Positions 206-52,004 of a stretch of 64,000 nucleotides of DNA are shown piece after piece. Within the stretch, counting starts at the first letter, position 1. Every line of letters begins with the position of its first letter. The stretch is from the NCBI GenBank assembly GCA_963643715.1, contig CAVILQ010000009.1, positions 4,520 to 68,519 on the forward strand, read 5' to 3'. Made by a program: the position numbers and the translations under genes. This DNA is from a bacterium. Lineage in GTDB: Bacteria; Bacillota_I; Bacilli_A; RFN20; CAG-288. The notes beneath the pieces are model-generated. The model was not told the DNA's origin. It made no database searches and saw only the letters and a list, made by a program, of their open reading frames with translations.

Positions 206-568
206 ATGAAAAAAATCGATCATATCCTCTTTTGGAAAAGAAGACCGGATTCTGTAGAAGCGATTCAATCTATCCGTCTCGATTATCATAAAGGCTGTTT
301 CCTTGATGAGAACGGAAACAAATACGAAAAGAAAGAGAGTGATGAATTGATTCGAACACTCTTTGATGTCTTGAAAATAGAAGAGACTGAGAATGATTTC
401 AAAGCTTTTCTCTTTGAAAATGACAAAGAGAACTATCAGATCAAGTTCTTCCTTGAAATCGCATACGATGATGCTACCTATCTTGCCATAAAAGGAACTC
501 AGCCCTTCCATCAGAAAAACTACAAAGAGATTCAATCTCTGTTCCAACCTTACATAGAGAAAAATTAA
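206..568 (+). CDS. hypothetical protein (120 aa)
   Basis: Clean ORF followed immediately by an intrinsic terminator; non-repetitive composition; no recognisable domain. Confidence 0.4.
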   Translation: MKKIDHILFWKRRPDSVEAIQSIRLDYHKGCFLDENGNKYEKKESDELIRTLFDVLKIEETENDFKAFLFENDKENYQIKFFLEIAYDDATYLAIKGTQPFHQKNYKEIQSLFQPYIEKN

Positions 569-571
569 AGA

Positions 572-600
572 AGCCGATGAAAATCGGCTTTTTAAAAACA
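572..600 (+). terminator. rho-independent terminator (aagccgat-gaaa-atcggcttttt)
   Basis: Perfect 8-bp stem, GAAA tetraloop and T-run directly after the stop at 568. Confidence 0.7.
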
Positions 601-797: not shown

Positions 798-1064
798 TTA
801 GAAACTATATTCTTTGCAAAGTTTCTCAAATCCTAAAACGGCTTTATCCTCATCTTCGCCTTCGCAGACGACAGTAAGAGTAGAACCTTTCTCAATAGGA
901 GATAAAGCAAAAACATTCATAATAGACTTTAAGTCACATTCATCACCGTTTTCAAGTTTCAATGTGACAGAGCATCTATGATGATTCGCTTCTTCAACGA
1001 GTTCAGCGCTGGAACGGGAGGTAAGTCCACCCATGTTAGTTACAATGATTTTAAATGTGGTCAT
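798..1064 (-). CDS. HPr-fold phosphocarrier-like protein lacking catalytic His15 (Crh-like)
   Basis: 88 aa. It aligns along its whole length to HPr (MAQKTFKVTADSGIHARPA...KSIMGVMSLG). GLTSRSS replaces GIHARPA, so His15 is Thr. KSIMNVFALS keeps the Ser46 context. Confidence 0.65.
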   Translation of the reverse strand: MTTFKIIVTNMGGLTSRSSAELVEEANHHRCSVTLKLENGDECDLKSIMNVFALSPIEKGSTLTVVCEGEDEDKAVLGFEKLCKEYSF

Positions 1065-1337
1065 AAATTCTTTCCTTCAATTGTATTATATAGAAAAATG
1101 TAAGCGATTACAACCTCTTTGCCTAAAAGAAATAGATAATCTAAATTATTCTATCACAACAATCGAACAAATGAACACAATTTAAAAGGTAAATGTTATA
1201 AATTCACATAGGATGTTCATAGGAGACTTGGTGAAGCATTACAGAGATTAGGACCTATTTGTTCGCTGTTAAACGCTTTACAATAGCGGACATAACGAAC
1301 AGAAATAACCAACTATCCTTACATGTACAACAAAAAG

Positions 1338-4440: not shown

Positions 4441-5832
4441 TTATTTTTTGATTTTCCCTAAAACGATATCATCTGCCAAAAGGAAAGTCATATAAAGAGG
4501 AACTGTCAAAATATCATTTTCTTCATTGTAGCCGAGTTGATTCGAAGAAATCTTGATTGCTGTTGTTCTCTTATTATGTTCACGAAAATCCTTCAATGAA
4601 TTCAGGAATCTTTTGCCTTTCTTAACATCAATCGGGCAAATATCTCCATTGATATCAACAATGAATTCAAACTCATGCTGTTGTTTTCCTGTCCAATAAT
4701 AAAGTGGTATTCCTTTTGACACGAACTCATCAGCGACATACGATTCATAAAAGACACCAGAAAGCTCGTTTCTGCTATCTTTTGAAAGAAATGACGACTG
4801 AAGTATATTGCTCTCCTTTGCAAACAGTCCACAATCAGAAAGATACAATCGAAACAGTCCGCTTTCGTCTTCCATTAAAGGCGAAGTGACCTTGCCTTCC
4901 TTTCGTTTGCTTCGATATATGACATGGGCCAAATCCAACCATTCATATGCCCCAAAATAATCTCGGTTTGATTTTCCTCTTTCTATAGAGGCTATTTTGA
5001 AATTCTTATTTTCCTTATTCAGTTGAGCAAATATGTTCTTATAGATATTTCTTGTTTTTAGAATCATCTCATCTGAGATGTTATATAGACTCATATCAGC
5101 AATATAGTTCTCATACAATTCATTCAGAATCTCTTTTGCTTCCACATAGGAATGATTTTTCAAAAAGGAATCTACAACTTCAGGAAGTCCTCCGATGCAA
5201 AGGAATTCATGAAGCAGATCAAGAGCTAAATCATGCTCATACTTCTCTAATGGTTTATTTCTATCGTAATAGGCTTCTTTGATTCTAGTAAGCAATGGTT
5301 TATTCACGTTGAGAAGATATTCCTCAAATCCCATTGGATACATCGATAATGAATTTATCTTTCCAACTGGAAACATTACATTATCCCCACCATTCCTACA
5401 AGCACGCTGTAAAGCGAGTCGAACCATAGATCCTGTAATAATGACTGGTAATTCAGGATGGTCCTGATTGAAATACTTCAAAGACGTTAGAACATTAGGA
5501 ACCGTTTGTGCTTCATCAATGATAAGTGGGCATTCTTCAGAAATGACTTTCCCATAATTGCTCTCAATAAAACGAAGATATTTTTCATCATCTACAGTCT
5601 CGCTAAAATACTCGGCTGCTCTTTGATCCTTTTTCAAATCAATGTAAACATAATCCTTTGTAAAGTTCTTAGCAAACATCTCTTTGACAAGATATGTCTT
5701 CCCGGTTTGACGAGCTCCCCATATAACAAGAGGTTTTCGTCTATCTTTTTTCTGATACCATGCTAGTATTTTACTCAAATATATACGTTCCATAAACCAT
5801 GCCTCTCTATATGAATTATAATTGAAATTCAT
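4441..5832 (-). CDS. AAA+ superfamily ATPase (COG1373-like, Walker A GARQTGKT with DUF4143-type C-terminal half)
   Basis: GARQTGKT Walker A and IIDEAQ Walker B-like motifs; 463 aa. Confidence 0.7.
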   Translation of the reverse strand: MNFNYNSYREAWFMERIYLSKILAWYQKKDRRKPLVIWGARQTGKTYLVKEMFAKNFTKDYVYIDLKKDQRAAEYFSETVDDEKYLRFIESNYGKVISEECPLIIDEAQTVPNVLTSLKYFNQDHPELPVIITGSMVRLALQRACRNGGDNVMFPVGKINSLSMYPMGFEEYLLNVNKPLLTRIKEAYYDRNKPLEKYEHDLALDLLHEFLCIGGLPEVVDSFLKNHSYVEAKEILNELYENYIADMSLYNISDEMILKTRNIYKNIFAQLNKENKNFKIASIERGKSNRDYFGAYEWLDLAHVIYRSKRKEGKVTSPLMEDESGLFRLYLSDCGLFAKESNILQSSFLSKDSRNELSGVFYESYVADEFVSKGIPLYYWTGKQQHEFEFIVDINGDICPIDVKKGKRFLNSLKDFREHNKRTTAIKISSNQLGYNEENDILTVPLYMTFLLADDIVLGKIKK

Positions 5833-6068: not shown

Positions 6069-6503
6069 CTACGCCGCCAGGGCGAATCCCATCCAGGTCC
6101 TCTCGTCCTCGGTCATTTCGCCGTAGTTTCGTATCCTTCTCTGCTTCCTCTCGTACTTCACGATGGTTCCTGCCATCGTGATGATTCCGTTCGCCTCGGA
6201 ATTGATAAGTCTTCTCTTCCTCGTGTCCGTCTTTATCATCGAGTTGAAGCTCTCGATCTGATTCGACGTGTACAGAGACGTCCTAAGGCATCTCGGAAAT
6301 CCGAGGTATGTGTCAAGGCCGTCCGTCTCCAGGAGCAGGCGCATCCTTCGCGGATACGATTTTTGCCATCTGCTGACGAATTCGGCAAGCCTTCCCTGGA
6401 ACGCCTCCTGAATCCTTTCTCTGACAACCTCATTGAACTCACAGACGATTTCTTTGTGGATTTCCTCTGGGTCGGAATCCAGATAATGTGCTAAAATGTT
6501 CAT
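6069..6503 (-). pseudogene. IS256-family (Mutator-type) transposase, C-terminal fragment only
   Basis: YTSNQIESFNSMIKTDTRKRR matches the IS256 C-terminal YTTN.IES.N signature. Only about 144 aa are present, against about 400 aa for an intact IS256-family transposase. GC is clearly higher than in the flanking DNA. Confidence 0.65.
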
Positions 6504-6763: not shown

Positions 6764-8767
6764 TTACGCTTTTACTAACTCACGTTGTTTCAGATAATCA
6801 ATGATCATCTGAGCTGATTTTTCTTTTCCGATAGATGAATCGATGCAAAGATCATAATGATGCTGATCGTTCCAGGATAAAGATGTGATGCTCTGGTAGT
6901 AATTTGATCTAGCTTTATCAGACTGTTTCATCATCTTCTTTGCTTCTTCGTAGCTGTCATTATACATTTCCATGATATTTTTGATCTTAACCTCTTCAGA
7001 TGCATAGATAAAGATAGAAACGACGTTTGGATTATCTCTTAAGACATAATCAGCTGCCCTACCGACAATGACACAGCTTCCTTGTTTTGCAATAGAGAGC
7101 AAAACCTCTTTTTGTGCTTCAATCGACTGTGCCTCTGGGCTCTTGCTTAAATAAAGATTTGAAGGAACACCCTGTTTCAAAGCGTTAGTATTAGAAAGGA
7201 ACTTCTCCGTCAATCCGCTCTTTTCCGCAGCTAATGAGAGCAATTCCTTAGAATAGAACGGAATATTCAATGTCTTTGCTACAATCTCACCAATACCTTT
7301 TCCCTGTGATCCATGCTCACGGGAAATAGTCAGAATAACACCAGGATGAGATTCCTGTATCTCAACCGTCTCAACTGGAGTGATATCCTCTTTTCCTAAT
7401 TCCTTAAATAGGATAAAGGTGAAAGTCAAAGCAATCAAGAAAGCTAAAACGTCCGCAATCATCGGAGCATAAAGAAGAGCAACAATACCAGAACCAGTCT
7501 CATTCTTTTCACTGATCAAAGGAAGAATCATGACAGCAGGGACAAAAAACAGGATATCACGTGCCAGAGAGGCAATCGTTGCTTTGATTGCTTTTCCACA
7601 GGCTTGGAAGAAGATAGAGGACATCTTAATAAAACATGTCAACATCGTAGTCGCCAAGAAAAGACGGAAGACAAGTCTTCCATATTCCATATATAGAGCG
7701 TCATCTTTCGCACCGAATATAGCAATAATTCCATCTGGCCAGATTTCGAATAAAAGTGTAGCAATAAAGGAGAGACCGATTGTCCACATAAGAATGAGGA
7801 AATAAAGATGGCGTACTCTCTTTATCTTTCCGGCTCCGATATTGTATCCGATGATAGGGAGGCCACCTAAGACAATACCGACAACGATATTAAGAACGAC
7901 AGTAAATACCTTTGTCTCAATCGATGTGATTGCGATCGGAATATCCTGACCAAATTTGGATTGGTTACCATATTTCACTAGCATTGTATTGCCGACAAGG
8001 TTGACAACAACAATAGAAATCTGAGTGATGAAAGAAGAGACACCTAACATAAATGGCTCTTTAAATCCAATGATATCTGGAATAAACGACTTCAAATTGA
8101 GTCGGAAGGTTTTTGAACGGAAGAAGTAAGCTGCACCAACTAAGAAAGAAACGACCTGACCAATGACAGTGGCCCAGGCAGCCCCTTCAATTCCCCAATC
8201 ACAGACATAGATAAAGATAGGATCCAATATGATATTCAGAATAGCACCTACTCCAGTAGAAAGCATTGCATATAGTGGAGAACCATCACTTCGAATGACT
8301 CCATTCATCATATTCTGGAGCATGTAGAACGGAAAGAAGAAGGCAACGATTCTCAAGTAGGATTTGGCAAGAGACAAGGAATTGTCACTCGCTCCACAGA
8401 ACCTTAGAATCGGTTCAGCAAAGACAAGGCTGAACAGGATGATAAGGAAAGAGGAAAGAAGGGTAAGCACTATACCTGTACCGATTGCCTTGTTCGCTTT
8501 CTCCTGTTCTTTTCTTCCTTGACAGATACTTAAGAAGGCAGCACATCCATCACCAAAGCACCAAGCAAAAGCCTGTGTGACAACAAGAATAGGAAAGACA
8601 GCGCCTGTTGCCGCATTTCCTAAATATCCTAAGGATGAGTTCCCGACAAAGATCTGATCTACGATATTGTATAAAGAAGAAATCAGCAAGGATGCAACAC
8701 AGGGAATTGAAAACTTCAATAGGAGTTTTCCAATCTTCTCTGTTCCTAAATATTTGTTTTCGTCCAT
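6764..8767 (-). CDS. MATE-family efflux transporter fused in-frame to a C-terminal cytidylate-kinase-like (NMP-kinase fold) domain
   Basis: N-terminal 12-TM MATE region (KLLLKFSIPCVASLL...), then a P-loop-like EHGSQGKGIGEIVAKTLNIPFY cytidylate_kin2-type domain. The start was chosen at MDENKY, which has a GGAGGAG ribosome-binding site; the ORF track extends 34 codons further upstream. Confidence 0.6.
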   Translation of the reverse strand: MDENKYLGTEKIGKLLLKFSIPCVASLLISSLYNIVDQIFVGNSSLGYLGNAATGAVFPILVVTQAFAWCFGDGCAAFLSICQGRKEQEKANKAIGTGIVLTLLSSFLIILFSLVFAEPILRFCGASDNSLSLAKSYLRIVAFFFPFYMLQNMMNGVIRSDGSPLYAMLSTGVGAILNIILDPIFIYVCDWGIEGAAWATVIGQVVSFLVGAAYFFRSKTFRLNLKSFIPDIIGFKEPFMLGVSSFITQISIVVVNLVGNTMLVKYGNQSKFGQDIPIAITSIETKVFTVVLNIVVGIVLGGLPIIGYNIGAGKIKRVRHLYFLILMWTIGLSFIATLLFEIWPDGIIAIFGAKDDALYMEYGRLVFRLFLATTMLTCFIKMSSIFFQACGKAIKATIASLARDILFFVPAVMILPLISEKNETGSGIVALLYAPMIADVLAFLIALTFTFILFKELGKEDITPVETVEIQESHPGVILTISREHGSQGKGIGEIVAKTLNIPFYSKELLSLAAEKSGLTEKFLSNTNALKQGVPSNLYLSKSPEAQSIEAQKEVLLSIAKQGSCVIVGRAADYVLRDNPNVVSIFIYASEEVKIKNIMEMYNDSYEEAKKMMKQSDKARSNYYQSITSLSWNDQHHYDLCIDSSIGKEKSAQMIIDYLKQRELVKA

Positions 8768-8900
8768 AACAGTTCTCCTCCAACAGGCAATAAAAAAGGC
8801 ATCTTTTCTGATGACATAAGTATCATACCAAAGAGATGCCTGATTAAAAAGATTTCGTATCGAAATCAAGAGATAACTATATAAGATATATCATCTAATC

Positions 8901-15037: not shown

Positions 15038-16477
15038 TTATGCGCGGCTGAAGCTATCCTGAGCAGCTTTGTAAATAGTATCGAAGCTAGATTCTACTGT
15101 CTTAGAGCTCTGCTGAAGGAGTCCTAAGAAAGGACGGTTGCTACTAGCGACCCAAGCGTTAGAGATATATCCATTAAGATAGATGGATGCTTTGGAATCA
15201 TCTGTTGCTGCTTTCTTTACGCTGTTTTTGACATCAAGATAAGAACTGATATAAGAATTCGATGTATCGATAGAAGAGGAGTCTGTATTCTGATAGGCTA
15301 AGAATCCATGAGACTTATTTGTAAAGTTGGATAAGGACCAGTTGCTGATCATTGTCTTGATAAAGGATTTCGCCAAATCCTGTTTCTTACTGGATGCAGG
15401 AATAGCAATATACTGATCGCTTCCGATGACATAAGACACATCCGTATCTTTTGCACCATCGAAGACCGGAGTCTTCATCAGCTTCATTTCAAATCCATCC
15501 GGTTTGGTTCCATATTCCAAGGTTTCATTATAGATCCAGTCACCATCAAAGATCATCGCCGCTTTTCCGTTGAAGAAATCCTGCTGTGCCTGATGATTCG
15601 TATAGGATAAGGATCCACCAATATAGGTTGAGGTCTGTTCTGTTGTCTTTTTTCCACTCTCATCGGTTGTCTCAATTGTGACATCACTGAATAAGGTCTT
15701 CCAATAATCTACAACGGTTTTCAAGGATGAGTAGGCAGAATCCTTATTCTGCCAGTTGAAGTTCTCGGCACTCTCGTAGTTATAGAATTCTTTGACTTTA
15801 TCATATCCAGCCAACTGCATCCACCAATTAAAGATAGCATAATCGAAATAGTCTGTGTTTTCACCGGTATAGACAAAAGGCTTTACGCTAGCAGCATCAT
15901 CACCTTTGACTTCGACTGGATTCTCAAGAATCTCTTTCACCAATGCAGTCAATTCAGAAGTAGTAGTCGGAACCTTCCAACCATTCTCTTCAAACATCTT
16001 CGCATTGTAATAGATTCCACCGAAACCGCTAGTCCATGGTAAACGATAGACATGCTCTTCTCCGCTAACATTCATCTTCAAGGAAGAACGGAATTCATCA
16101 TTGACCTTCTCTTCAACAGTCATGCCATCTACTGTTTCATTCATCAAGTCATCAAGAGGAGCAAACTTTCCTTGATATGCATAGTTTCTCCATCCACTAT
16201 CCGTGGTGATATATAAATCATCAGTATTATTCCTAGAGGATAAGTGTCTATTGATCAAAGTCTTGACTTCATATTTGGCAGTAAGGTTTACCTTGTAGCC
16301 CTCGTTTTCACTTTCCCACTTTGTGATGACATCTTCTAGCCATTCACTTCCCCATCCTGCATTATAAAGAATGATATTGAGCGTGGATTTATCTGATTCA
16401 TCATTGGTAGAACCAGAGCATCCTGTAAGCATCAATATAGAAAGTACACCGACTAATCCTCTTCTTATCTTGTTCAT
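15038..16477 (-). CDS. ABC transporter extracellular solute-binding lipoprotein (carbohydrate)
   Basis: Signal peptide plus lipobox LTGC; 479 aa; sugar-SBP-like composition; lies in a sugar ABC locus. Confidence 0.7.
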   Translation of the reverse strand: MNKIRRGLVGVLSILMLTGCSGSTNDESDKSTLNIILYNAGWGSEWLEDVITKWESENEGYKVNLTAKYEVKTLINRHLSSRNNTDDLYITTDSGWRNYAYQGKFAPLDDLMNETVDGMTVEEKVNDEFRSSLKMNVSGEEHVYRLPWTSGFGGIYYNAKMFEENGWKVPTTTSELTALVKEILENPVEVKGDDAASVKPFVYTGENTDYFDYAIFNWWMQLAGYDKVKEFYNYESAENFNWQNKDSAYSSLKTVVDYWKTLFSDVTIETTDESGKKTTEQTSTYIGGSLSYTNHQAQQDFFNGKAAMIFDGDWIYNETLEYGTKPDGFEMKLMKTPVFDGAKDTDVSYVIGSDQYIAIPASSKKQDLAKSFIKTMISNWSLSNFTNKSHGFLAYQNTDSSSIDTSNSYISSYLDVKNSVKKAATDDSKASIYLNGYISNAWVASSNRPFLGLLQQSSKTVESSFDTIYKAAQDSFSRA

Positions 16478-16702
16478 ATCCGTCTCCTTTTTCAGTTAGT
16501 GAAAAAACTCACTATCACTATTGTAAAACACAAGGAAACCGCTTGCAATATTTTTTAAGTGTCAAAGTATTTTTATTTTTCCCATATAATACGGAAATAT
16601 TCTACATTTATTTATTTTTATGGAATCGCCGTTTTTCTATTTTCTTAACTTTATGAAAAATATCTTGAGCATTCCTATTTTGTGTTCTATAATGTAAGCG
16701 CT

Positions 16703-18199
16703 ATGAAAAAAATATATAAAACTTGTCTGATTCCACTAGTCCTCCTGCAGTTCTCTCTTTCATCCTGTAACGGAAAGGCTTCCGCTATAGAAAGCAGTCC
16801 TATTTCAAATGATGATAAGAACTCAGAGAACACGGGAAAGGATCAATTCACAATTGGTGAAAACTACCACCTCTTAAACAATGTCGAAGAAGATGTCGTA
16901 AACGGATTCTACGATGGTTTCGATACGCTAAGCAAATCCAACTGGCTCGTATTGAAAGGCTATTGGGGCGCTAATAATGGGGGCGTCTCTCCCGAAAACG
17001 TATCGATCACGGAAGATGGAACATTAGCCTTAGCCGGAAATGGTCTCTACTACAACAGAGGCGATATTGAAAGCTACGGTCAGTTCAAAGACGGAAGAAA
17101 ATGCGGAGCATCTTTGATTTCCACTTTCAAAGCCTTACCTGGACACTATGAGATCAAGATGAAGGTTCATCCTCGTATTGGTGCCTGCACTGCCTTCTGG
17201 ACCTATGGAAATAGAGCCGTAGAAGGAGAAAGTGAGAACGAGAACGCTGAGATCGATGTCGAACTACCAGGCGGTTCTAAATCTGGTAAGATCACCTACA
17301 AGAAAGCTTTATACACCAACTGGATCACCGAAAAAGCAAGCGACTCCGTCGAAGTAGATATCAGCGATACCGATAAGACATCTGTAGCCTATAACGATAA
17401 CCAGTGGCACACATTCGGATTTGACTGGTATACCGACCCTGAACTTGTCGTCTATTACTGTGACGGAAAGATCACCAATATATCAGATACATTCGTTCCG
17501 ACATTGGCTGGTAGATTATGGCTCGGTGTCTGGTTCCCGAACGGATTCACAGGAACAGCTAACTTTGAAAAAGACTATATGTTTGTCGACTATGTCAAAT
17601 ACAACCCTTTCAAAGATCAGCCTTATACCGATTTTGACGCTGTTCCCTCCTCTTCTCTCTCTGTCGCATCTGATTCCATATATCAGAAGAAACCGATTAA
17701 AACACCTATTGCCAACAAAGTCAGCAACGGCGACTTTGAATATGCAGGAAAAATCGATACCTCATCTGAAGAGACCTATAATTCCACACTGAAGAACAGA
17801 GGATGGACTTTCACGAAGAAAGTCAGTGAAAAGAAAGCACAAAAAGAAGTGTGTTGGATTGAAAGCGGAACGATGAACTCTACCTATTCCGTCTTTGTCA
17901 AAGATGGTGGTGTCTTAAGACAAGAGATTGAAGCTGTCTATGACGGATACCAATACAATTATGAATTCAAAGCCAAAGCAGATGCTTCCTCTAGCGGAAC
18001 GGTAACATTCCACTACTACGGAGCAAATGATGAGACCCCATTAGATTCCTATACAGTCAATATCACTTCCACTGATACTCAGACCTATCAAGGCACATTG
18101 ACTGCTCCAGAAGGAACTGAGAAAATCCGAATCGAAGCACGTACTTCCGGAACCGGAAATAAGATTATGTTAGATGATTTTTCAATAACGAACAAATAA
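16703..18199 (+). CDS. GH16-family glycoside hydrolase lipoprotein with C-terminal beta-sandwich (CBM-like) extension
   Basis: Lipobox LSSC; the ENAEIDVELPGG stretch contains the GH16 catalytic E-x-D-x-x-E motif. Start moved to the MKK codon. Confidence 0.6.
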   Translation: MKKIYKTCLIPLVLLQFSLSSCNGKASAIESSPISNDDKNSENTGKDQFTIGENYHLLNNVEEDVVNGFYDGFDTLSKSNWLVLKGYWGANNGGVSPENVSITEDGTLALAGNGLYYNRGDIESYGQFKDGRKCGASLISTFKALPGHYEIKMKVHPRIGACTAFWTYGNRAVEGESENENAEIDVELPGGSKSGKITYKKALYTNWITEKASDSVEVDISDTDKTSVAYNDNQWHTFGFDWYTDPELVVYYCDGKITNISDTFVPTLAGRLWLGVWFPNGFTGTANFEKDYMFVDYVKYNPFKDQPYTDFDAVPSSSLSVASDSIYQKKPIKTPIANKVSNGDFEYAGKIDTSSEETYNSTLKNRGWTFTKKVSEKKAQKEVCWIESGTMNSTYSVFVKDGGVLRQEIEAVYDGYQYNYEFKAKADASSSGTVTFHYYGANDETPLDSYTVNITSTDTQTYQGTLTAPEGTEKIRIEARTSGTGNKIMLDDFSITNK

Positions 18200-24376: not shown

Positions 24377-25996
24377 ATGGAAACACTACGCCTAGAACAT
24401 GTATCGAAAACCTATAAGGCAAAAAAGAGAAAAGAGAAGGATGTTGAAGCAGTAAAAGACTTTTGTCTCTCTGCAGATGATGATGAGTTCATCGTCTTTG
24501 TCGGACCATCCGGATGCGGAAAATCCACCACTCTTAGAATGATTGCCGGTTTTGAAGATATCACAGATGGTGACCTTTACATCAACGGTCAGAGAATGAA
24601 TGATATCGAACCAAATTACCGTGATATCGCGATGGTCTTCCAAAACTATGCGCTCTATCCTCACATGACTGCATATCAGAACATGGCTTTCGGATTAAAA
24701 AACAGGCATGTTCCAAAAGAAGAGATCGATGAGAAGATTCGTGCAGCTGCTAAGATTCTCGATATCGAGGAACTGTTAGACAGAAAGCCTGGTGCAATGT
24801 CAGGCGGTCAAAGACAAAGAGTCGCTTTAGGTAGAGCTATTGTCAGAAGACCGAAGATCTTCCTTCTCGATGAACCTCTGTCCAATTTGGATGCTAAGCT
24901 TAGAGCAACGATGCGCGTTGAAATCACTCGTCTCTTTGAGAAACTGAAGACAACATTCATCTATGTCACACATGACCAAGTAGAAGCAATGACGATGGGA
25001 AGCAGAATCGTTGTCATGAAAAGCGGTGTCGTTCAGCAAATTGATACTCCAACGAACATCTTCGACTATCCAAAGAATAGATTTGTCGCCGGTTTCTTAG
25101 GAACACCTCAGATGAACTTCTATGAAGGAATCGGAAAGAGAATCGAGAACGATTTCATCTTCACGATGCATGGAAAGGAACTCCGTTATCCTCTTTCTGA
25201 ACTAAAAGAATTGCATCAAAGCATGTTAGACGGAAATGAACATAAAATGATTCTCGGTATCCGTCCAGATGATATCAAGATTTCTGATATGGGTGATTTC
25301 AAGACAAGAATCAACATTATGGAAATCCTTGGAAATGAAGCAATCGTCTATACCGACTTCAGTGAGAATAACGATGGAAGCAAAGAGAGCGAAACCTCTC
25401 TTGTCATCAAAGTTCCAGGAAGAATCGAAGCAAAGAAGGGAGACGACATCTCTATCCTTTTGCCTGCTGAAAAGATTCATTTCTTCGAAAATGATGAGAA
25501 AGATGAAAAGTCCCTTATCATCTCTCCACGCAGTTCATTGACAGAGATGAAAGGATACTTGTCATATGAGAACGAATCCTTTGAATTCCTCTTTGAAAAC
25601 GGAGTCAAGTTCACACTTGATTTCATCAACAAAGAAACAATCAATGAAGTATATCGAAGCGGAACACATCGTGTAAAGATGGTCATTCCAACCGATGCTG
25701 TCTCATTCGATGACAATGGCGAAATCGAAGCCATCTATGAAGGTGATGGCATTTACGGAAAGAAGAGACTATCTCGACTTGAGCTGAATCTTTCACTCGA
25801 TTATCAGTCCTCATTCGATTCACCTATATCCCATCTGTATGTACCATACAAAGCAGGGTACAAGTCTCAAGACCACGTTCACATCCATATCGACACTTCT
25901 GCCATTGATTTCATCGGTGATGATCATTTATCCATCTACGATTTAAACAAGAAAGAGAAAGAGATTACTGAATATAGAGTAAGTGAGTGTGAGTGA
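24377..25996 (+). CDS. sugar ABC transporter ATP-binding protein (MsmK/MalK-like) with extended C-terminal region
   Basis: GPSGCGKST Walker A, LSGGQRQR signature and a LLDEPLSNLD Walker B-like motif. At 539 aa it is about 170 aa longer than a typical MalK. Confidence 0.8.
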   Translation: METLRLEHVSKTYKAKKRKEKDVEAVKDFCLSADDDEFIVFVGPSGCGKSTTLRMIAGFEDITDGDLYINGQRMNDIEPNYRDIAMVFQNYALYPHMTAYQNMAFGLKNRHVPKEEIDEKIRAAAKILDIEELLDRKPGAMSGGQRQRVALGRAIVRRPKIFLLDEPLSNLDAKLRATMRVEITRLFEKLKTTFIYVTHDQVEAMTMGSRIVVMKSGVVQQIDTPTNIFDYPKNRFVAGFLGTPQMNFYEGIGKRIENDFIFTMHGKELRYPLSELKELHQSMLDGNEHKMILGIRPDDIKISDMGDFKTRINIMEILGNEAIVYTDFSENNDGSKESETSLVIKVPGRIEAKKGDDISILLPAEKIHFFENDEKDEKSLIISPRSSLTEMKGYLSYENESFEFLFENGVKFTLDFINKETINEVYRSGTHRVKMVIPTDAVSFDDNGEIEAIYEGDGIYGKKRLSRLELNLSLDYQSSFDSPISHLYVPYKAGYKSQDHVHIHIDTSAIDFIGDDHLSIYDLNKKEKEITEYRVSECE

Positions 25997-26049: not shown

Positions 26050-26386
26050 GTGTAAAAGAAATTGTTTAATTAACTTAGTGATGAAATAAAGCAATATTAA
26101 ATTATAAGAATTATAAGCAAAACATAGAATAAGTTGTGATAAAAACATCACTCTCCTAATACAACAACGCCGTAGAATGAAATGACAATCTAGTCGTTCA
26201 TAAATATGGTATCAAGTTTTGAAGGCTGTATTAAATCCTTCTCGCTATATGCGATTTTTCGTTTATGATTCATTAGGATAACCAATTCTTATCTTCTATA
26301 TATGTTCCAATGCTGAGAATCACAAAAACATTGGCTATATGATTCTTAATTTCGTTTACTTGTTTTTACTGATTTGATATAATTTA

Positions 26387-26470
<84 letters not shown>

Positions 26471-26483
26471 TTTTATTTTCAAA

Positions 26484-46554: not shown

Positions 46555-49500
46555 ATGTGTAAAAAACGAAAGGACTTATGTCCTATGACAGCAAGCAAGG
46601 TATCAGCACAACGCATCAACTCACATCACTCATATATCGGAAGCAACCCGGAATGGTCGCTCCTTGACGGCTCCGTCCACTATTCTTATCCGATCTGCTC
46701 ATTCGGAGGAGGCCATTCCTTTTCATGTGAACTCATTTATGACTCGAACCTGCCTATCATCACCAGCGAAAAGTTCGGCGGCATGCCGTACTGCTTCATG
46801 CTGTCCTGCCACGCAAGGCTGATGCAATCGGAAGGCGGATATATCTTCGTCGATGAGGAAGGCATCCCCCATCTTTTCACAGGCTTCATCGATCAGGGAG
46901 ACACCTACTATCATGACAACGACGGGCTTGGCATGATCCTAGATGACCACAGCGACATCAGAATCGACAACGGATTCGGAACTATTCTTTACTTTGACGA
47001 CAGCATGAGACTGAGCAGGAAATGCTCTCCTGGCGTCTTTGAGATCTCCTACTCTTACGATAACATAGGAAGACTGACTTCAGTGTCGGACACGACAGGA
47101 AAGAAGCGAAAGTTTGTCTTCGAATACGACGGTGCCCTAGCCTTTGTCAAATCATATTATGAAAACAAAGTAGTTTCGATAACAAAGATAGGCTATTCAA
47201 CGAAACACGTTCTTAACATCGTAGCGAAGTGGCAGTTGCTTTCCCTTGACAGGATATCAACGGAGAACGGTTCGCAAGCAGAGCCTTTGCTCAGAATAAA
47301 GTATAAAGAGCAGGTCTTCAGCGAAGAGCCTCCCGCAGTCGAGTTCGATGACCTTTACAATCATTCAGCATTCCGGATAACATATGTAGGGGAAAAAGCC
47401 GCTAGACTGTCGTTCTCCGACATTGCCGCCGGCCTTTCGTTTAAAGAAAAGTCCTGTCTGGAAATGGCCGCTGACGAAGACATGGTCACCGTCAAGGACC
47501 AGGACGGCAAGCAAACATCATACATGCTAGACCAAAAAGGATACATCGTCTCATGTTTTAGAAAGGACGAATACGGGAATTTGCTCTCACTAGACAAGCC
47601 TATAGGAACCCGACTCGTCCTGACTAACGCTGAGACAGGAATAGATACGCTTCCGATCAGGACATGCGACAGAGGTCTCCCCGTCAAGATAACGGAATGC
47701 ATCCCACAGGGCAAAGACAAGGCCTCTCCTCTCTCAACGCTTCTCATCGACAAAGGCTGTTCTCTTTCCGTCTATGTCAGGCTGAAGGAGTCGCATCCTG
47801 GTGCCGTCCTTTCCGCCTCGGGATTCGTTTCGGCCGCGCTGAACCCCTATGCTGTCGGAACATGGCAAAAGGCACGGCTCGGGTTCAAGGACAGCAAGAC
47901 ACCGTCCGAACTGAAAATCAGTGTCACCAATGACCTGGGGGTCGCATTCAAAGCCGACATCTGTGAGCCGGTCATCGTGAATTCCGGCACCGAAAGACTG
48001 ATCCTCGGGGAAGCAGAACTCAATGAATTCAGCAGCCTGACAAAGAATTGTGAAAGAATCCGCGGCGTCGTCTCCAAGACAGACCTTCTGACCAGCATGA
48101 AGCATTTCGTGTTCTCTGACAGCATCACATATTTCCTGTGGATGAACAACGGACACGACGTCATCCAGATGGACAACGTTTCCTTCACCCTGAACGGCAG
48201 AGAGGTCCTTTTCACCGATTTCCTGAGGACGCAGGAACTGACGCTCGTGAAATATGACACGCAGAATGGATTCATGCGCGAAAGGAAACTCAAGAGAAAC
48301 GGAAACCATCAGATAACGGATGAAAAGACGATATCAGATGCCAACGGAAACGCCATCGAGCACGAGAAAAGAATGCGCGATGTCACAAATGAGGTGGTGC
48401 TCGACTCCTACGGTCTCCTTCACAGAAGCCAATATACTTCAGACGGACTGCCCTGGAGGCAGTACGACAGCAATGGCAAAGTCATCTCCGAGAATGAGTA
48501 TGACAGCGATGGGAATCTTACCTGCGCGAAGACCGATACCTCCACGCATCATTACACCTACAGCATGGGAACTCTGTCCTCAATCGCAAACGGCGGCGTG
48601 ACAAGAAGCATATACTATGACGGATTTGGAAGAACCGGCGGAGTTCGCTTTACAGACGGAAGCGAAAATCGGTTCGGCTATTTCGGGAGCCATCTGTCGT
48701 CAATCAGCGACAGTTCGATAGGAGTCGCCTTTATCACGGATTCCAGAAGGGATTATGAAGACTACTACATAAACAAGAGCCTCATAGAGCATGTGGAAAA
48801 CGGCAGTCAGACAAGGAAGAAGACATACCCTAACGGAACAGGAATCACGGAATGCTATGACAATGACGGGAATCTGATATCCGTGGTCGGCAACGGAACG
48901 GACACGGCCACAATCACAAGAAGCCCTGACACTTCCTTGCCTGTCACAGTCAAGGACGGATTCGCCGACATGACTACTGACATCGAATACAGAGGAGACA
49001 AAAGCGTCCGAAAGACTACGACGAGAAAAGGCGGAAAAGTCTATCTCACAAAGGAAGAGATACATAGCGAGTATGACACCGAATTTGTCATTGGACCTGA
49101 CTCCCTGCCATACAGAAAGGCTATAAGCAAACAAAATGCGCTCATCCGTATCATCTATGACAATGGCACTCACAAGGTCAAAGGGCTCGGAAGCGACACC
49201 TATCTCGATGCTTTGGCAAGACCGTCCAAGAAGCAAAGCGGACCGATAAGCTGCTCCTACCAGTATAAGAACGGTTCCTCTCTCCTTCATAAGCTTAGCT
49301 GTGACGCCTTCACCGAGGAGCTAGAGTACGAAAATGATTCCTTCCTCGTGTCGAAGGCAGTCTTTTCCGGATACATAAATGAAACCGATAGTTTCCGATA
49401 TGACTCATGCGGCAGACTACTTGAGGCAAGAAGAACAGGTAACGGCGATTACCGGCATATTTACAGCTACAAAGGCTCCAGGCTTGATGAAATCAAAGAT

Positions 49501-50769
49501 TACCTAAAGATAATACGCGGCAGCGACGGACTCATCAGCTCCGTTGAAGACTACCTTGGGAGAAGGCATATCGGAATCAGCTATGACAGTGCCGGAAACA
49601 TGACAAAACATGGAGACAAGGAACTCAGCTACCAGTACGGGCATAGGTTAAGCAGTGTGAAGGAAGGGCTTAACGAATCCAAATACCTATATTCCTATGA
49701 CGGGATACGCATCGAAAAGGACGTGAACGGGACCAAGACAACCTTCTACTATGACGGCAAGACTCTCTTAGGCGAGGATCGCGGCGATGAGATACGCATC
49801 CGCTATTTCCAAGACACGAACTCCTACACCGGATTCACACTCGAAGAGAAGGGGACTGACACGTTCTACCTATATCTAAAAGACTCGTTCGGAAACATAA
49901 TCGGCATCATCGACAGCCAGGGATATCTCGTAGGAAGATACATCTACGACGAAAAGGGAAGGCTTCTCGGAACGGTGCCAAACAGCAACATCAAGGATGC
50001 CGAGCACATCCTTGACATCAACCCTCTCAGGTACAGAGGCTACTACTATGACGAGGAAACCGGCTTCTATTACCTCCACGCAAGGTACTATGATCCGATT
50101 TCCATGTCTTTCCTTACCCCTGATGACAAGGAAAACATCGACGGATATTCCGTTTCGGGCGCTGATCCATACTGCTACTGCAACTATGATCCCGTCAACT
50201 ACTTCGATCCGTACGGGACCATCAATGTCCTTATAGCATTGATGCTGATCGGAGCCGCAGTCGGCGCACTCAGCTACACGGCATCGTCACTCATTTCCTA
50301 CGCCGTGACTAGAAAATGGTCCTGGTCTTGGTGCCAGTTTATCGTATCAACATTTTTTGGTGCTCTAGAAGGTGCATTGACCTTTGCTCACATACCACCC
50401 GTTTGGAGTTATTTAATTTTTAGTTCTTTACCAACAGGTATTGGTATGTGTTTACAAAATATCTTTGAGGGGACAGATTACACAACCAACCAAATCTTAA
50501 TTTCGTCAGCTTTTAGTTATTTTTTATCAGCTTTTCTCTCACGAATTCCACAGTTCTTAATCAAAGGACTTAATTATGGAAGAAACAGTTTTTCAGAAAT
50601 TGCTAGTTCAATAACAACAAAATATGCGAACAATGTAATCAAAAACATGTCAATGAAGACCATGGGAAAAATATTCATTTCCAATCTTTATGACTCCACA
50701 TATGGGATACTTTCCGATGCCTTTTTTAGTATCCTCGACGACGATGAAAAGGAGGAAGCATTTGCATAA
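46555..50769 (+). CDS. RHS/YD-repeat polymorphic toxin with hydrophobic multi-helix C-terminal domain
   Basis: Many YD repeats (YDSNGKVISENEYDSDGN, YYDGFGRT, YSYDGIR...). The RHS core ends at ARYYDPISMSFLTPD...DPVNYFDPYG, followed by about 180 aa containing four hydrophobic helices. The body is high-GC and GC drops at about 50335. No signal peptide. An alternative start exists at 46585. Confidence 0.85.
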   Translation: MCKKRKDLCPMTASKVSAQRINSHHSYIGSNPEWSLLDGSVHYSYPICSFGGGHSFSCELIYDSNLPIITSEKFGGMPYCFMLSCHARLMQSEGGYIFVDEEGIPHLFTGFIDQGDTYYHDNDGLGMILDDHSDIRIDNGFGTILYFDDSMRLSRKCSPGVFEISYSYDNIGRLTSVSDTTGKKRKFVFEYDGALAFVKSYYENKVVSITKIGYSTKHVLNIVAKWQLLSLDRISTENGSQAEPLLRIKYKEQVFSEEPPAVEFDDLYNHSAFRITYVGEKAARLSFSDIAAGLSFKEKSCLEMAADEDMVTVKDQDGKQTSYMLDQKGYIVSCFRKDEYGNLLSLDKPIGTRLVLTNAETGIDTLPIRTCDRGLPVKITECIPQGKDKASPLSTLLIDKGCSLSVYVRLKESHPGAVLSASGFVSAALNPYAVGTWQKARLGFKDSKTPSELKISVTNDLGVAFKADICEPVIVNSGTERLILGEAELNEFSSLTKNCERIRGVVSKTDLLTSMKHFVFSDSITYFLWMNNGHDVIQMDNVSFTLNGREVLFTDFLRTQELTLVKYDTQNGFMRERKLKRNGNHQITDEKTISDANGNAIEHEKRMRDVTNEVVLDSYGLLHRSQYTSDGLPWRQYDSNGKVISENEYDSDGNLTCAKTDTSTHHYTYSMGTLSSIANGGVTRSIYYDGFGRTGGVRFTDGSENRFGYFGSHLSSISDSSIGVAFITDSRRDYEDYYINKSLIEHVENGSQTRKKTYPNGTGITECYDNDGNLISVVGNGTDTATITRSPDTSLPVTVKDGFADMTTDIEYRGDKSVRKTTTRKGGKVYLTKEEIHSEYDTEFVIGPDSLPYRKAISKQNALIRIIYDNGTHKVKGLGSDTYLDALARPSKKQSGPISCSYQYKNGSSLLHKLSCDAFTEELEYENDSFLVSKAVFSGYINETDSFRYDSCGRLLEARRTGNGDYRHIYSYKGSRLDEIKDYLKIIRGSDGLISSVEDYLGRRHIGISYDSAGNMTKHGDKELSYQYGHRLSSVKEGLNESKYLYSYDGIRIEKDVNGTKTTFYYDGKTLLGEDRGDEIRIRYFQDTNSYTGFTLEEKGTDTFYLYLKDSFGNIIGIIDSQGYLVGRYIYDEKGRLLGTVPNSNIKDAEHILDINPLRYRGYYYDEETGFYYLHARYYDPISMSFLTPDDKENIDGYSVSGADPYCYCNYDPVNYFDPYGTINVLIALMLIGAAVGALSYTASSLISYAVTRKWSWSWCQFIVSTFFGALEGALTFAHIPPVWSYLIFSSLPTGIGMCLQNIFEGTDYTTNQILISSAFSYFLSAFLSRIPQFLIKGLNYGRNSFSEIASSITTKYANNVIKNMSMKTMGKIFISNLYDSTYGILSDAFFSILDDDEKEEAFA

Positions 50770-51323
50770 TGAAAAAGAAAATATATTTTCAAGACAGCAT
50801 CCCATATCACATTTTATTTTCTATCCCTTTAATAATTGGCATAGCAACAATCACGTTTGCAGTTGTAGAATTGATACATTCTCCTTCTACGAACTTATAT
50901 TTGAATATTTTTTTGATATTTGCTGGATTGTATTGTTTTTACGTCTTTTTAGACACAGAGTCTTTTATCATCCACATGGATGATAAAAAGGTTTGGATGA
51001 TAGGAGAACCTGTCATTGAACCTTTACGAACTCAGTACAAAGCTGAAGTCCTGTTTTCTGACATCATTAACATTTATATTGTCAGGTCTCACACAAACAG
51101 CAAAGGAAAAAAATATGAAAACAGAAACAGAAAAGTAAGACTTGGAATTAGAGCCTATTTGGTGTTTACAAAGAAGAATGGTCACAAGGTCAGAATGTTG
51201 GTCAGTTATCACACAAGGGAACATCTATTAGAAATCATCAGTGAAATCATCGTTCGAATCAATGCTACAGGTAACATATACGAAGGAAATGACCCTCTTT
51301 GGATTGTCAATCACATCAAATGA
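50769..51323 (+). CDS. candidate immunity protein (two-TM, 184 aa) translationally coupled to the RHS toxin
   Basis: Its ATG overlaps the RHS stop (TAATG). Two N-terminal TM helices. It is a paralogue of the next ORF, sharing the C-terminal IIRRINATGN.YEG..PLWI block. Confidence 0.65.
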   Translation: MKKKIYFQDSIPYHILFSIPLIIGIATITFAVVELIHSPSTNLYLNIFLIFAGLYCFYVFLDTESFIIHMDDKKVWMIGEPVIEPLRTQYKAEVLFSDIINIYIVRSHTNSKGKKYENRNRKVRLGIRAYLVFTKKNGHKVRMLVSYHTREHLLEIISEIIVRINATGNIYEGNDPLWIVNHIK

Positions 51324-51413
51324 AGAACTGCAATCTTTTTATAGCCATATAAGTTTGGCCTTATCAATATTATCGTTATAAACCATTTGAATTCAGTAAA
51401 GGAGAAACTGGTA

Positions 51414-52004
51414 ATGAAAAAGAAAACATATTTACAAAACGATATATCGTATTATATAGCAATGTTTTTAATGTTTGTGCTTGCACTTACATCTGTCGGT
51501 TTAGGAATTTATCCTCTTATAAAATTGTTTACATCAGAATCTGACACTCGAGACGCTTTAAATATCATCCTTTTGATAATTTTCTTAATTATTTTTCTCG
51601 CATTAGCAGCGTATGTAGTTTTTATTACGATTGGTGAAATGAGCATCATCATATATATGGATGATGAAAAAATATGGATGAACGATGACCTAAAGTTAAA
51701 AAGGCTGCGATTACAGTATAAAACTGAAGCATACTTCTCGGAAATTAAAGATATCCGTTTAATCAAGAACAAAAAGGATAGCAAATCACATAGTTTTCCA
51801 AAAGACAGCATCTATCCCGGAAAACAAAAATATCTTGTCCTTACAATGAAAGACGATCATGTCGAAAGACTGAATGTCACATATTTCAGAAAAGGAACAA
51901 TCGGAAAAATCATCTGTGAAATCATTCGAAGAATCAATGCTACAGGTAACACATACGAAGGAAAATACCCTCTTTGGATTTTCAATAACATCACCTTAGA
52001 ATAA
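51414..52004 (+). CDS. paralogue of the preceding protein (second candidate/orphan immunity protein)
   Basis: Same architecture with strong C-terminal identity and a diverged N-terminal TM region. Start taken at MKKKTYLQ, which has an AAAGGAG ribosome-binding site. Confidence 0.6.
   Translation: MKKKTYLQNDISYYIAMFLMFVLALTSVGLGIYPLIKLFTSESDTRDALNIILLIIFLIIFLALAAYVVFITIGEMSIIIYMDDEKIWMNDDLKLKRLRLQYKTEAYFSEIKDIRLIKNKKDSKSHSFPKDSIYPGKQKYLVLTMKDDHVERLNVTYFRKGTIGKIICEIIRRINATGNTYEGKYPLWIFNNITLE

Follow-up and report, generated by a model that had tools for sequence, protein, structure and literature searches.

What can an HPr protein still do once the histidine of its phosphocarrier function has been replaced? 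This question is raised by the gene at 798..1064 on the minus strand of the window (the whole 64-kb stretch of DNA analysed here), which is the only HPr-family open reading frame within it. The gene, taken from the open reading frame list and supported by PF00381, TIGR01003 and AlphaFold2 (AF2), encodes an 88-aa protein, MTTFKIIVTNMGGLTSRSSAELVEEANHHRCSVTLKLENGDECDLKSIMNVFALSPIEKGSTLTVVCEGEDEDKAVLGFEKLCKEYSF, carrying Thr15, Arg17 and Ser47, the last being the counterpart of canonical Ser46. The protein is a member of the HPr family and its HPr fold is confidently predicted. Residues 3-84 match profile positions 2-80/81 of Pfam PTS-HPr (PF00381) at 63.1 bits against a cut-off of 23, TIGR01003 is matched at 57.8 bits (cut-off 47.9), and the AF2 model, with a mean pLDDT of 94.5, follows the beta-alpha-beta-beta-alpha-beta-alpha order of HPr, with strands at residues 2-7, 32-36, 42-44 and 62-68 and helices at 16-27, 48-52 and 72-85. 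The best PDB matches of this model are HPr structures, the ten best showing TM-scores of 0.82-0.88 and rmsd values of 1.1-2.0 A. In the alignment with Mycoplasma capricolum HPr (1pch), GLTSRSSA lies opposite GLHARPAS, which places Thr at the position of His15 and keeps Arg17, and DLKSIMNV lies opposite NLKSIMNV. An earlier, sequence-only reading had described just such a protein, with an HPr fold, Thr in place of His15 and the Ser46 region retained, and this description is borne out by the end-to-end Pfam match, the 1pch alignment, an alignment of 33 homologues and the AF2 model.

The regulatory serine is encoded by codon 47 (TCT, 924..926, minus strand), equivalent to the Ser46 that is the target of HprK/P, and an insertion in the beta2-beta3 hairpin shifts its number one beyond that of the canonical residue. 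It lies inside the invariant block C43-D-L-K-S-I-M-N-V-F52; DLKSIMNVF does not vary in the aligned homologues of the window protein, and four synonymous TCN codons are in use for the serine across orthologues. Invariant columns among the 33 homologues comprise G13, L14, R17, A20-V23, E25-N27 and the whole block C43-F52, which we take to be the helix-1 and helix-2 faces of HPr that touch HprK/P and CcpA in the complexes 1kkl and 1rzr. Both Thr15 and Ser47 are preserved across synonymous codon changes, and the gene is under purifying selection (median dN/dS 0.12, 103 pairs).

We propose that the gene encodes a regulation-only HPr, namely an HprK/P-phosphorylated co-repressor that works with a CcpA-type regulator at cre operators, and we put the probability of this reading at about 0.65. 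Both HPr surfaces for regulatory partners would have been kept for this purpose. At high glycolytic flux, the kinase/phosphorylase HprK/P would phosphorylate Ser47 (canonical Ser46), the seryl-phosphorylated protein would bind a CcpA-type LacI-family regulator via P-Ser and Arg17, and the resulting complex would sit on promoter-overlapping cre operators and repress transcription. Its targets would be the promoters of the glucan-utilisation/ABC-transporter locus and the promoter of the HPr gene itself, the latter implying negative autoregulation. Within this scheme, we infer Ser47 phosphorylation, a regulator that binds cre together with its identity, and the direction of regulation; for phosphorylation and CcpA binding, hprK on the contigs of relatives and the cre sites give indirect support.

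Related genomes carry canonical HprK/P genes on the very contigs that hold their Thr15-HPr genes. In a sister lineage (L055-L057), the gene for a 309-aa HprK lies, with lgt, 7 kb from the Thr15-HPr gene. On contig CAYRUQ010000008.1, HprK P0486 (21306..22406) and the Thr15-HPr gene of L025 (5340..5603; product 75% identical to the window protein) are 15.7 kb apart, a linkage established through two pieces of the contig that share an identical 298-nt overlap. For HprK P0488, the longest contig on which it is found measures 875,710 bp, the same length as CALVMW010000001.1, which holds the Thr15-HPr of L035 (73% identical to the window protein). The HprKs of these relatives keep the Walker A motif GESGIGKSE, HRLIADD and EVRGIGII as well as H138, K159, D176, D177, E202, R204 and R243 (B. 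subtilis numbering), and hprK in relatives is clustered with gap, pgk and tpi. A profile built on the HprKs of B. subtilis, S. xylosus, L. casei and M. pneumoniae returned almost exclusively Bacillaceae and staphylococcal proteins among its best 120 matches, and the enzymes of the related lineages were reached with a closer query, the sister-lineage hprK found 7 kb from Thr15-HPr; tblastn with B. subtilis HprK matched some of the related loci only. No hprK was found in the 64-kb window, and from the sequences of its relatives we infer that the window's exact species probably has the gene too. The search for hprK and ccpA that the sequence-only reading had suggested succeeded for the kinase in related genomes but not for the regulator: tblastn with B. 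subtilis CcpA gave no match in ~1.1 Mb of the group's DNA, and as no LacI/CcpA gene was seen there, the cre-binding protein is a postulated one.

This missing ccpA match, and the clustering of the relatives' hprK with glycolytic genes (gap, pgk and tpi), would also fit a protein that is phosphorylated by HprK/P and controlled through cre/CcpA, and acts mainly on enzymes or transporters rather than as a co-repressor, be it by inducer exclusion at a MalK-type ATPase or by binding glycolytic enzymes. Such actions have precedents: the maltose ABC transporter of Lactobacillus casei is subject to P-Ser-HPr-dependent inducer exclusion, and in B. subtilis MgsA is inhibited by Crh and GapA is bound by HPr/Crh. 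The organism imports sugars through ABC systems: the window encodes ABC transporters for sugars and a phosphorylase route of the GH94 type, with no PTS gene, and the MalK-type ATPase of the sugar locus (24377..25996, 539 aa) is unusually long. We nevertheless consider it unlikely that direct action of this type is the main output. The invariant Arg17 and Ser47, together with canonical cre sites at catabolic promoters, are what a CcpA co-repressor needs, the analysis turned up no partner, and a role of this kind would add to co-repression rather than exclude it.

The operators on which the co-repressor reading depends begin at the HPr gene itself. Its sigma-70-type promoter (1085..1113, minus strand) consists of a -35 box TTGTAA (1113..1108), a 17-nt spacer and a -10 box TATAAT (1090..1085), reaching 10/12 matches in the promoter scan, and an RBS, AAGGAAAG (1070..1077, minus strand), was read from the sequence 5 nt upstream of the ATG; orthologues have AGGA/GGAA-type RBSs at the same place. 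A palindromic cre box at 1099..1112, TGTAATCGCTTACA when read in the direction of the gene, agrees with TGWAANCGNTNWCA without a mismatch; it starts 48 nt before the ATG and takes in the -35 box together with half of the spacer. Orthologous upstream regions show the same layout of promoter and cre: in 37 of the 53 gene copies examined the box lies 44-52 nt ahead of the ATG, and about ten further species have it with one mismatch. This own-promoter cre is conserved in nearly all GLTSRSS-type orthologues amid unrelated flanks, and its conservation reaches 9 nt into the spacer (TCGCTTACA). In the sister lineage L055, whose Thr15-HPr gene is next to hprK, the HPr promoter has no cre. The canonical cre in the gene's own promoter, missing from the sequence-only reading, is to our eyes its most telling feature.

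A wider scan placed this operator in context. Perfect intergenic cre matches numbered 29 in ~850 kb, every one of them at an HPr promoter, and with up to one mismatch allowed, 50 intergenic sites were found where 4.85 were expected (~127 kb of intergenic DNA). Away from the HPr promoter there are about 10 such sites against the expected 4.85, an approximately twofold enrichment, and some of them precede genes for a GH3 beta-glucosidase-like protein and a YesM-like sensor kinase (both assigned by eye) and for a large lipoprotein. A global cre regulon is undemonstrated by the perfect matches alone, as all the intergenic ones in ~850 kb belong to the HPr promoter; other targets are supported only by the one-mismatch scan and by the footprint at the sugar locus.

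Two further sites lie in the sugar locus of the window. One had been suspected at about 16534, and a cre-like site, TTGCAAGCGGTTTC, is indeed present at 16535..16548 (minus strand). It departs from the strict cre consensus by two mismatches, overlaps the -35 box of the promoter-like site ahead of the sugar-binding-protein gene (15038..16477, minus strand), and is invariant in two relatives (L068 and L069) while its flanks diverge. The motif TTGNAANCGNTTNC occurs in the window only at this site and at the HPr promoter (2 matches, 0.17 expected). The promoters of the sugar-binding-protein gene and of the GH16/ABC-permease operon are divergent, and each has a cre-like site: that of the operon, TGTAAGCGCTATGA (16693..16706, plus strand), has one mismatch, begins on the final base of the -10 box TATAAT (16688..16693), and falls within a 24-nt block that L068 and L069 share without change.

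Because the perfect sites are confined to the HPr promoter (29/29 intergenic matches in ~850 kb) and enrichment elsewhere is weak, at about twofold, there is room for a dedicated local regulator. The palindrome might then be the operator of a local repressor, of LacI type or another, or an extended promoter element, as its TTG doubling as the -35 box could suggest; there would be no CcpA-like regulon, and the protein would have nothing to do with catabolite repression. We hold this to be quite improbable. Conservation continues for 9 nt into the spacer, which in promoters is normally free to vary, the motif fused to a -35 box is found again at the sugar-binding-protein promoter, and a third site directly adjoins the -10 box of the GH16 operon, both of these being invariant in relatives; moreover, the box at the HPr promoter matches the CcpA cre consensus exactly.

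The co-repressor reading can also be extended. The family of the window protein has conserved residues of its own, namely AELVEEANHHxC, Cys43 and a C-terminal EYSF, among which the near-invariant His28, Cys31 and Cys43 are unusual. In the extended form, Thr15-HPr would be the sole HPr of a PTS-free order and an autoregulated HprK-HPr-CcpA flux sensor that takes a second input, absent from canonical HPr and Crh, through Thr15 beside Arg17, His28, Cys31 and Cys43, by way of Thr phosphorylation by a Hanks-type kinase or of redox or metal sensing. We regard this combination as a long shot.

The PTS status of the lineage bears on what has become of position 15. According to the tabulated part of the supplement of PMC7301438, ptsI (K08483, COG1080) occurs in 0 of the 21 genomes of 'gut lineage 2' (RFN20) and five Glc/Mal-type PTS permease KOs at 0-5% among the same 21. 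The assignment of the window organism to RFN20, and with it the absence of Enzyme I, is read from relatives (Ca. Enterosoma = GTDB UBA7642, RFN20) and from this table rather than from its own genome. A tblastn search with B. subtilis Enzyme I found no match in ~1.1 Mb of related loci, and ptsI is absent from the window too. The term paralogue, used in the sequence-only reading, is unproven, since no second HPr gene was seen in the window or in any related locus examined; given that Enzyme I was listed for 0/21 RFN20 genomes, the window protein may instead be the lineage's only HPr.

Codon 15 (1020..1022, minus strand) reads ACC (GGT on the plus strand) and, as judged from the sequence and the 1pch alignment, encodes Thr where HPr has its phosphocarrier His15; two nucleotide changes separate it from each of the His codons. 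Almost all of the 33 aligned homologues share Thr15, and the residue recurs in more than 80 homologues spread over 47 species of uncultured Bacilli from the order RFN20 and its relatives, being encoded by ACC, ACT or ACA across 41 distinct orthologous genes. Most of the window protein's family has Thr here, with Asn or Ser in two members; close relatives with Asn, Gly or Ile are also found, and in the wider clade the position is mostly Thr, Ser or Asn. Owing to Thr15 and to published tables without Enzyme I or PTS permeases, the window protein cannot be expected to carry phosphate from Enzyme I. The predominance of Thr, Ser and Asn in the wider clade and the unusual conserved His28, Cys31 and Cys43 could be taken to mean that the protein is still a phosphocarrier, with a non-canonical relay via Thr15 or another residue, which we find very improbable. 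Putting Ser or Thr at position 15 leaves E. coli HPr inactive with Enzyme I. Enzyme I is itself reported absent from RFN20 genomes, the Asn, Gly and Ile found at position 15 in close relatives imply that a phospho-acceptor is not required there, and in L. monocytogenes HPr loses more than 96% of its PTS activity with His15Ala or His15Asp (PMC3526391). A sequencing error at the His15 codon, which the sequence-only reading had itself held up against its proposal, is ruled out by the near-invariance of Thr15 in 33 homologues and its three synonymous codons in 41 orthologues, and the chance of an assembly error or of a decaying relic of a lost PTS, in favour of which there is only the fact that His15 was lost in a lineage for which absence of the PTS is reported, is negligible given an identical protein in at least five independent assemblies, the same substitution in more than 80 homologues, a dN/dS of 0.12, and an intact and conserved promoter, RBS and operator.

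How, then, does this protein relate to HPr proteins of known function? It had been called Crh-like, and a regulation-only role is indeed the best reading, but membership of the Crh family is ruled out. NF010354, presumably the Crh equivalog model, gives 42 bits against a cut-off of 123, the window protein has Thr15 where Crh has Gln15, and a neighbour-joining tree groups it with other HPr proteins of uncultured Bacilli that lack His15, in a clade of their own, the 21-member clade around it being free of Gln15 representatives such as P0279, P0344 and P0353. In the relatives' loci whiA is not followed by an HPr-family gene, as it is by crh in B. subtilis. The HPr/PtsH equivalog model NF010352 scores 41.9 bits (cut-off 110), and in the tree the nearest representatives with His15 branch as the sister group, which points to an origin from ptsH.

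Crh of B. subtilis and related Bacillaceae has in common with the window protein the HPr fold, the lack of His15 and of PTS phosphotransfer, and the Ser46 motif with Arg17, and both would be expected to be phosphorylated by HprK/P and to act with CcpA as co-repressors at cre sites. However, Crh is accompanied by a canonical HPr and a full PTS, whereas the lineage of the window is reported without Enzyme I, and a cre in its own promoter is a feature of the window HPr gene; we know of no report of one in the promoter of crh. Canonical HPr (M. capricolum 1pch, B. subtilis) is the best match in sequence and structure, and canonical PtsH shares length, fold, Ser46 region, Arg17 and Leu14 with the window protein; His15 is present there but lost here, and with it the defining phosphocarrier function of HPr. 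In Mycoplasma pneumoniae and Treponema, the signalling pair of HprK/P and HPr persists without a link to PTS sugar transport or to CcpA, and HPr retains His15 and, where present, an Enzyme I. In the window, by contrast, the histidine is replaced and the cre operators point to a LacI-type output. A parallel in overall logic is Ruminiclostridium (Clostridium) cellulolyticum, for which the relevant sections of PMC3656788 describe no HPr orthologue and no PTS EII, a Crh-like protein (Ccel_0806) and CcpA homologues, and propose cre sites as controls of polysaccharide-degrading genes. As portrayed in those sections, the setting of Ccel_0806 resembles the present case in being one of PTS-free catabolite repression; unlike for the window HPr gene, they report no autoregulatory cre (PMC3656788). 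Ccel_0806 comes from another class (Clostridia) and is a sequence-distant relative of the window protein, and PDB 7ff5, an HPr-family protein of R. cellulolyticum, is matched at E = 5e-6 only.

RFN20 and its relatives are common, uncultured, genome-reduced bacteria of the gut and rumen that live on imported glycans. The concept of such an HPr is already known from Crh and from PTS-less clostridia with a Crh-like protein. If the regulation-only reading is true, Gram-positive-type catabolite repression would here have outlived the complete loss of the PTS, with HPr turned into a pure signalling protein, and His15 would have been lost independently of Bacillus Crh. The cre boxes would then offer concrete, testable sites for predicting the sugar preferences of bacteria that have not yet been grown, and a natural HPr without His15 would provide a means of separating the regulatory from the transport roles of HPr.

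The window HPr gene is monocistronic and divergent from trpS, and ptsI is not adjacent. The 330-nt trpS/HPr intergenic region gave no T-box or other Rfam element, even at E <= 1. About 210 nt downstream of the HPr-gene stop codon, the terminator scan marked a terminator-like hairpin followed by a T-rich tail (571..590, minus strand), which we tentatively assign to this gene and which probably also ends the convergent open reading frame at 206..568.

The 88-residue ORF at 798..1064 (-) encodes an HPr-family protein without His15. It matched PF00381 over nearly the whole profile in Pfam (63.1 bits; cut-off 23) and TIGR01003 in NCBIfam (57.8 bits; cut-off 47.9), and its closest solved structure by sequence alignment is Mycoplasma capricolum HPr (1pch), in which GLHARPAS lies under GLTSRSSA and NLKSIMNV under DLKSIMNV of the window protein. 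Relative to 1pch, His15 is replaced by Thr, Arg17 is retained, and the regulatory serine is Ser47, since one extra residue inserted into the beta2-beta3 hairpin shifts the numbering. An AlphaFold2 model built with 33 homologues reached a mean pLDDT of 94.5 with secondary-structure elements in HPr order, and its ten best matches among HPr crystal structures gave TM-scores of 0.82-0.88, the superposing structures including HPr from HprK/P and CcpA complexes. Profiles, alignment and model confirm the sequence-only reading of an HPr-fold protein with Thr for His15 and the canonical Ser46 kept.

A protein search with the window protein returned 87 homologues, nearly all of 88 aa, from uncultured 'Bacilli bacterium' genomes. 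In the 33-homologue alignment, G13, L14, R17, A20-V23, E25-N27 and all of C43-D-L-K-S-I-M-N-V-F52 are invariant and Thr15 is found in at least 90% of sequences; departures from Thr15 are Asn in one homologue (P0012) and Ser at one relative's locus (L044). Codon 15 of the window gene is ACC, two changes from any His codon. A sequencing error at this codon, which the sequence-only reading had named as a refutation, is ruled out: Thr15 is conserved and selected, being encoded by ACC, ACT or ACA across 41 distinct orthologous genes (Ser47 by four TCN types), with a median dN/dS of 0.12 over 103 orthologous pairs with unsaturated dS, and several independent assemblies share a protein identical to the window's. 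Cys43 is also invariant, and His28 and Cys31 near-invariant, among the homologues (ANHHxC ... ECDLKS); these residues could form a metal or redox site near the phospho-serine. No cysteine is present in B. subtilis HPr.

Against NF010354, which we take to be the Crh model, the window protein scored 42 bits, far under the cut-off of 123, and it scored equally on NF010352, the HPr equivalog (41.9 bits, far under the cut-off of 110). Searched exhaustively by profile, 1.84 billion representatives yielded 2,715 proteins of the HPr family at E <= 0.001. The nearest representatives to the Thr15-HPr family also lack His15 and retain the serine, with Thr, Ser, Asn, Gly or Ile at residue 15 and the motif (A/C)DLKSIMNV, and where named they come again from uncultured Bacilli genomes. 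In a neighbour-joining tree, 16 His15-less representatives formed one clade with five His15-bearing representatives as its sister, and none within this 21-member clade carried the Crh-type Gln15; the tree covers the representatives, the B. subtilis references having been removed from it for too many gaps. The hprK regions of relatives run uvrA-hprK-lgt-(HAD)-trxB-like-whiA-gap-pgk-tpi, with no HPr-family gene 3' of whiA; in B. subtilis, crh lies downstream of whiA (yvcL). The NF010354 score, Thr rather than Gln at residue 15 and the tree position argue against Crh family membership. We conclude that the window protein probably works like Crh, yet is not a Crh family member, and the earlier term "Crh-like" holds in the former sense only. 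Descent from the ptsH of a Mollicutes-related ancestor, with independent loss of His15, is more likely. B. subtilis Crh is the nearest analogue in function; in ecology it is the Crh-like protein of C. cellulolyticum, an organism to which PMC3656788 ascribes CcpA homologues and cre sites but neither an HPr orthologue nor a PTS EII. Our literature search found no paper on the Thr15-type His15-less HPr lineage, which is a new, independent lineage widespread in uncultured Bacilli.

The Thr15-HPr gene is present in 47 GTDB species representatives, with Candidatus Enterosoma, 'uncultured Mollicutes bacterium' and Clostridium sp. CAG:568 among the named carriers, and the window protein is 73-84% identical to its counterparts in the carrier genomes, from which the window probably comes from RFN20 or a near neighbour of that order. 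Ca. Enterosoma corresponds to GTDB genus UBA7642, family CAG-288, order RFN20 (PMC8035907), an uncultured gut lineage with reduced genomes that stands beside Mycoplasmatales and Erysipelotrichales (PMC7301438, PMC10868615). Species-representative records titled Alistipes onderdonkii, Oscillospiraceae, Paludibacteraceae and Prevotellaceae (L008, L009, L038, L039) also bear this Bacilli-type gene at 72-100% identity, probably through mis-binning of contigs or mislabelling of metagenome-assembled genomes. The window gene stands as a monocistronic unit diverging from trpS, surrounded by housekeeping genes, and synteny across relatives is only loosely kept. The 330-nt leader region upstream of trpS holds no T-box or other Rfam element. 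The 64-kb window encodes ABC sugar transporters, GH16 and GH94 enzymes, nagA/nagB, phosphoglucomutase, an FGGY kinase and regulators of the ROK, GntR and DeoR types, and contains no PTS component or LacI-family gene. The PMC7301438 supplementary table records ptsI (K08483, COG1080) for 0% of 21 genomes of 'gut lineage 2' (RFN20), and for the five Glc/Mal-type PTS permease KOs that it shows the figure is 0-5%; the same paper proposes sugar uptake by ABC transporters for the lineage. Thr15-HPr is likely the sole HPr of a lineage reported without PTS, which would be new.

The search for hprK, suggested by the sequence-only reading, came out empty within the 64-kb window and succeeded in relatives, where the gene lies on the same contigs as Thr15-HPr genes. 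Matches to classical HprK queries were swamped by Bacillaceae and staphylococcal HprKs. An hprK-lgt pair lies 7 kb from a sister-lineage Thr15-HPr (P0369) on three contigs, and this sister-lineage HprK as query retrieved kinases of about 360 aa from the window's bacterial group. One such gene (P0486) occupies 21306..22406 of contig CAYRUQ010000008.1, which at 5340..5603 also carries a Thr15-HPr gene (L025; protein 75% identical to the window's), and the pieces bearing the two genes overlap over 298 identical nt. For another kinase, P0488, the longest carrier contig measures 875,710 bp, exactly as does CALVMW010000001.1, which bears the Thr15-HPr-type locus L035. The group's HprKs retain the Walker A motif, the ADD motif, EVRGIGII and other residues invariant in known HprKs, and hprK coexists with the Thr15-HPr type in related genomes. 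In three of these kinases (P0486, P0488 and P0489, at L060, L058 and L062) the C-terminus is extended by about 55 residues that include a conserved NPEPD...G.IN.E motif; the extension is missing in B. subtilis HprK and in the sister-lineage kinase.

The promoter of the window gene contains a palindromic cre, TGTAATCGCTTACA (1099..1112), which starts 48 nt 5' of the ATG, matches the CcpA operator consensus TGWAANCGNTNWCA perfectly and lies across the -35 box of a TTGTAA / TATAAT promoter as well as half of its 17-nt spacer. The cre recurs 44 to 52 nt before the ATG in 37/53 copies of the gene and in one-mismatch form in about ten further species, with flanks unrelated between copies, a pattern that marks it as a phylogenetic footprint; such a conserved cre in the gene's own promoter is new. 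Because the cre overlaps the promoter, repression is implied, and repression at its own cre would make Thr15-HPr negatively autoregulated via the complex it helps form, as we predict. Genes of a distant GLTPRLAA subfamily (L049-L054; 44-49% identical) have no canonical cre upstream; at 3/6 loci (L050, L052, L053) the promoter spacer holds an AAAGCG(C)TT(T) palindrome, perhaps an operator of the same regulator that has diverged, while L049 has only the related TAAGCGGTTT and L054 none.

In about 127 kb of intergenic DNA from the window's group, 50 cre sites with at most one mismatch were observed against 4.85 expected, about 40 of them being the Thr15-HPr promoter. The remainder include sites 5' of a GH3-like protein (assigned by eye), a large lipoprotein and the window's GH16 gene, and a YesM-like kinase (by eye) is preceded by a cre-like site in two species. 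Against 0.17 expected matches, the motif TTGNAANCGNTTNC has 2, one in the HPr promoter and the other at 16535..16548, where a possible cre-like site had been noted from sequence (at about 16534). That site is borne out: it lies over the -35 box of a promoter-like site of the sugar-binding-protein gene. A second site in the sugar locus, TGTAAGCGCTATGA (16693..16706), directly adjoins the -10 box of the GH16 / permease operon, which runs divergently. In two metagenomic relatives (84-86% protein identity) these two sites lie within stretches of 16 and 24 nt that do not vary, and the centre of the intergenic region is divergent. No gene for a cre-binding regulator was seen in about 1.1 Mb of DNA from the window's group; from the DNA sites we infer such a regulator as the partner of Thr15-HPr.

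The best-supported reading is a PTS-independent catabolite-repression module, in which Ser47 would be phosphorylated by HprK/P and the phosphoprotein, via P-Ser and Arg17, would activate a regulator presumably of CcpA type; promoters with cre, those of polysaccharide-utilisation loci and of the Thr15-HPr gene itself, would then probably be repressed. Additionally or alternatively, Thr15-HPr may act directly on ABC-transporter ATPases or glycolytic enzymes. Less probably, the promoter cre serves as a dedicated local operator; perfect cre sites away from the HPr promoter are scarce, which speaks for this reading. A residual phosphocarrier role is unlikely, because Enzyme I is reported absent from the lineage (PMC7301438), residue 15 of relatives can be Asn, Gly or Ile, and replacing His15 leaves almost no PTS activity (PMC3526391).

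Within the sugar locus, the MalK-type ABC ATPase (24377-25996, +) has 539 aa, an estimated 170 aa or so over the usual length, and its extra C-terminal part, which has no family match, could be a regulatory domain and possible P-Ser-HPr target. A 701-aa protein (6764-8869, -) shows an unusual pairing of a MatE efflux-pump domain with a C-terminal Cytidylate_kin2 (cytidylate-kinase-like) domain, a fusion also called in related contigs. A truncated Mutator-family transposase fragment (6069-6503, -; profile positions 257-358 of 379) adjoins an AAA_14/DUF4143 ATPase (4441-5832, -) that is present or absent depending on strain within one species. The window holds no tRNA gene and one small SRP RNA gene (26383-26480, +; 57.6 bits). 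At 46555-52004 (+), two small ORFs without Pfam match (50769-51323 and 51387-52004) come after the gene for a 1404-aa RHS-repeat protein, an arrangement that resembles a polymorphic toxin with immunity genes.
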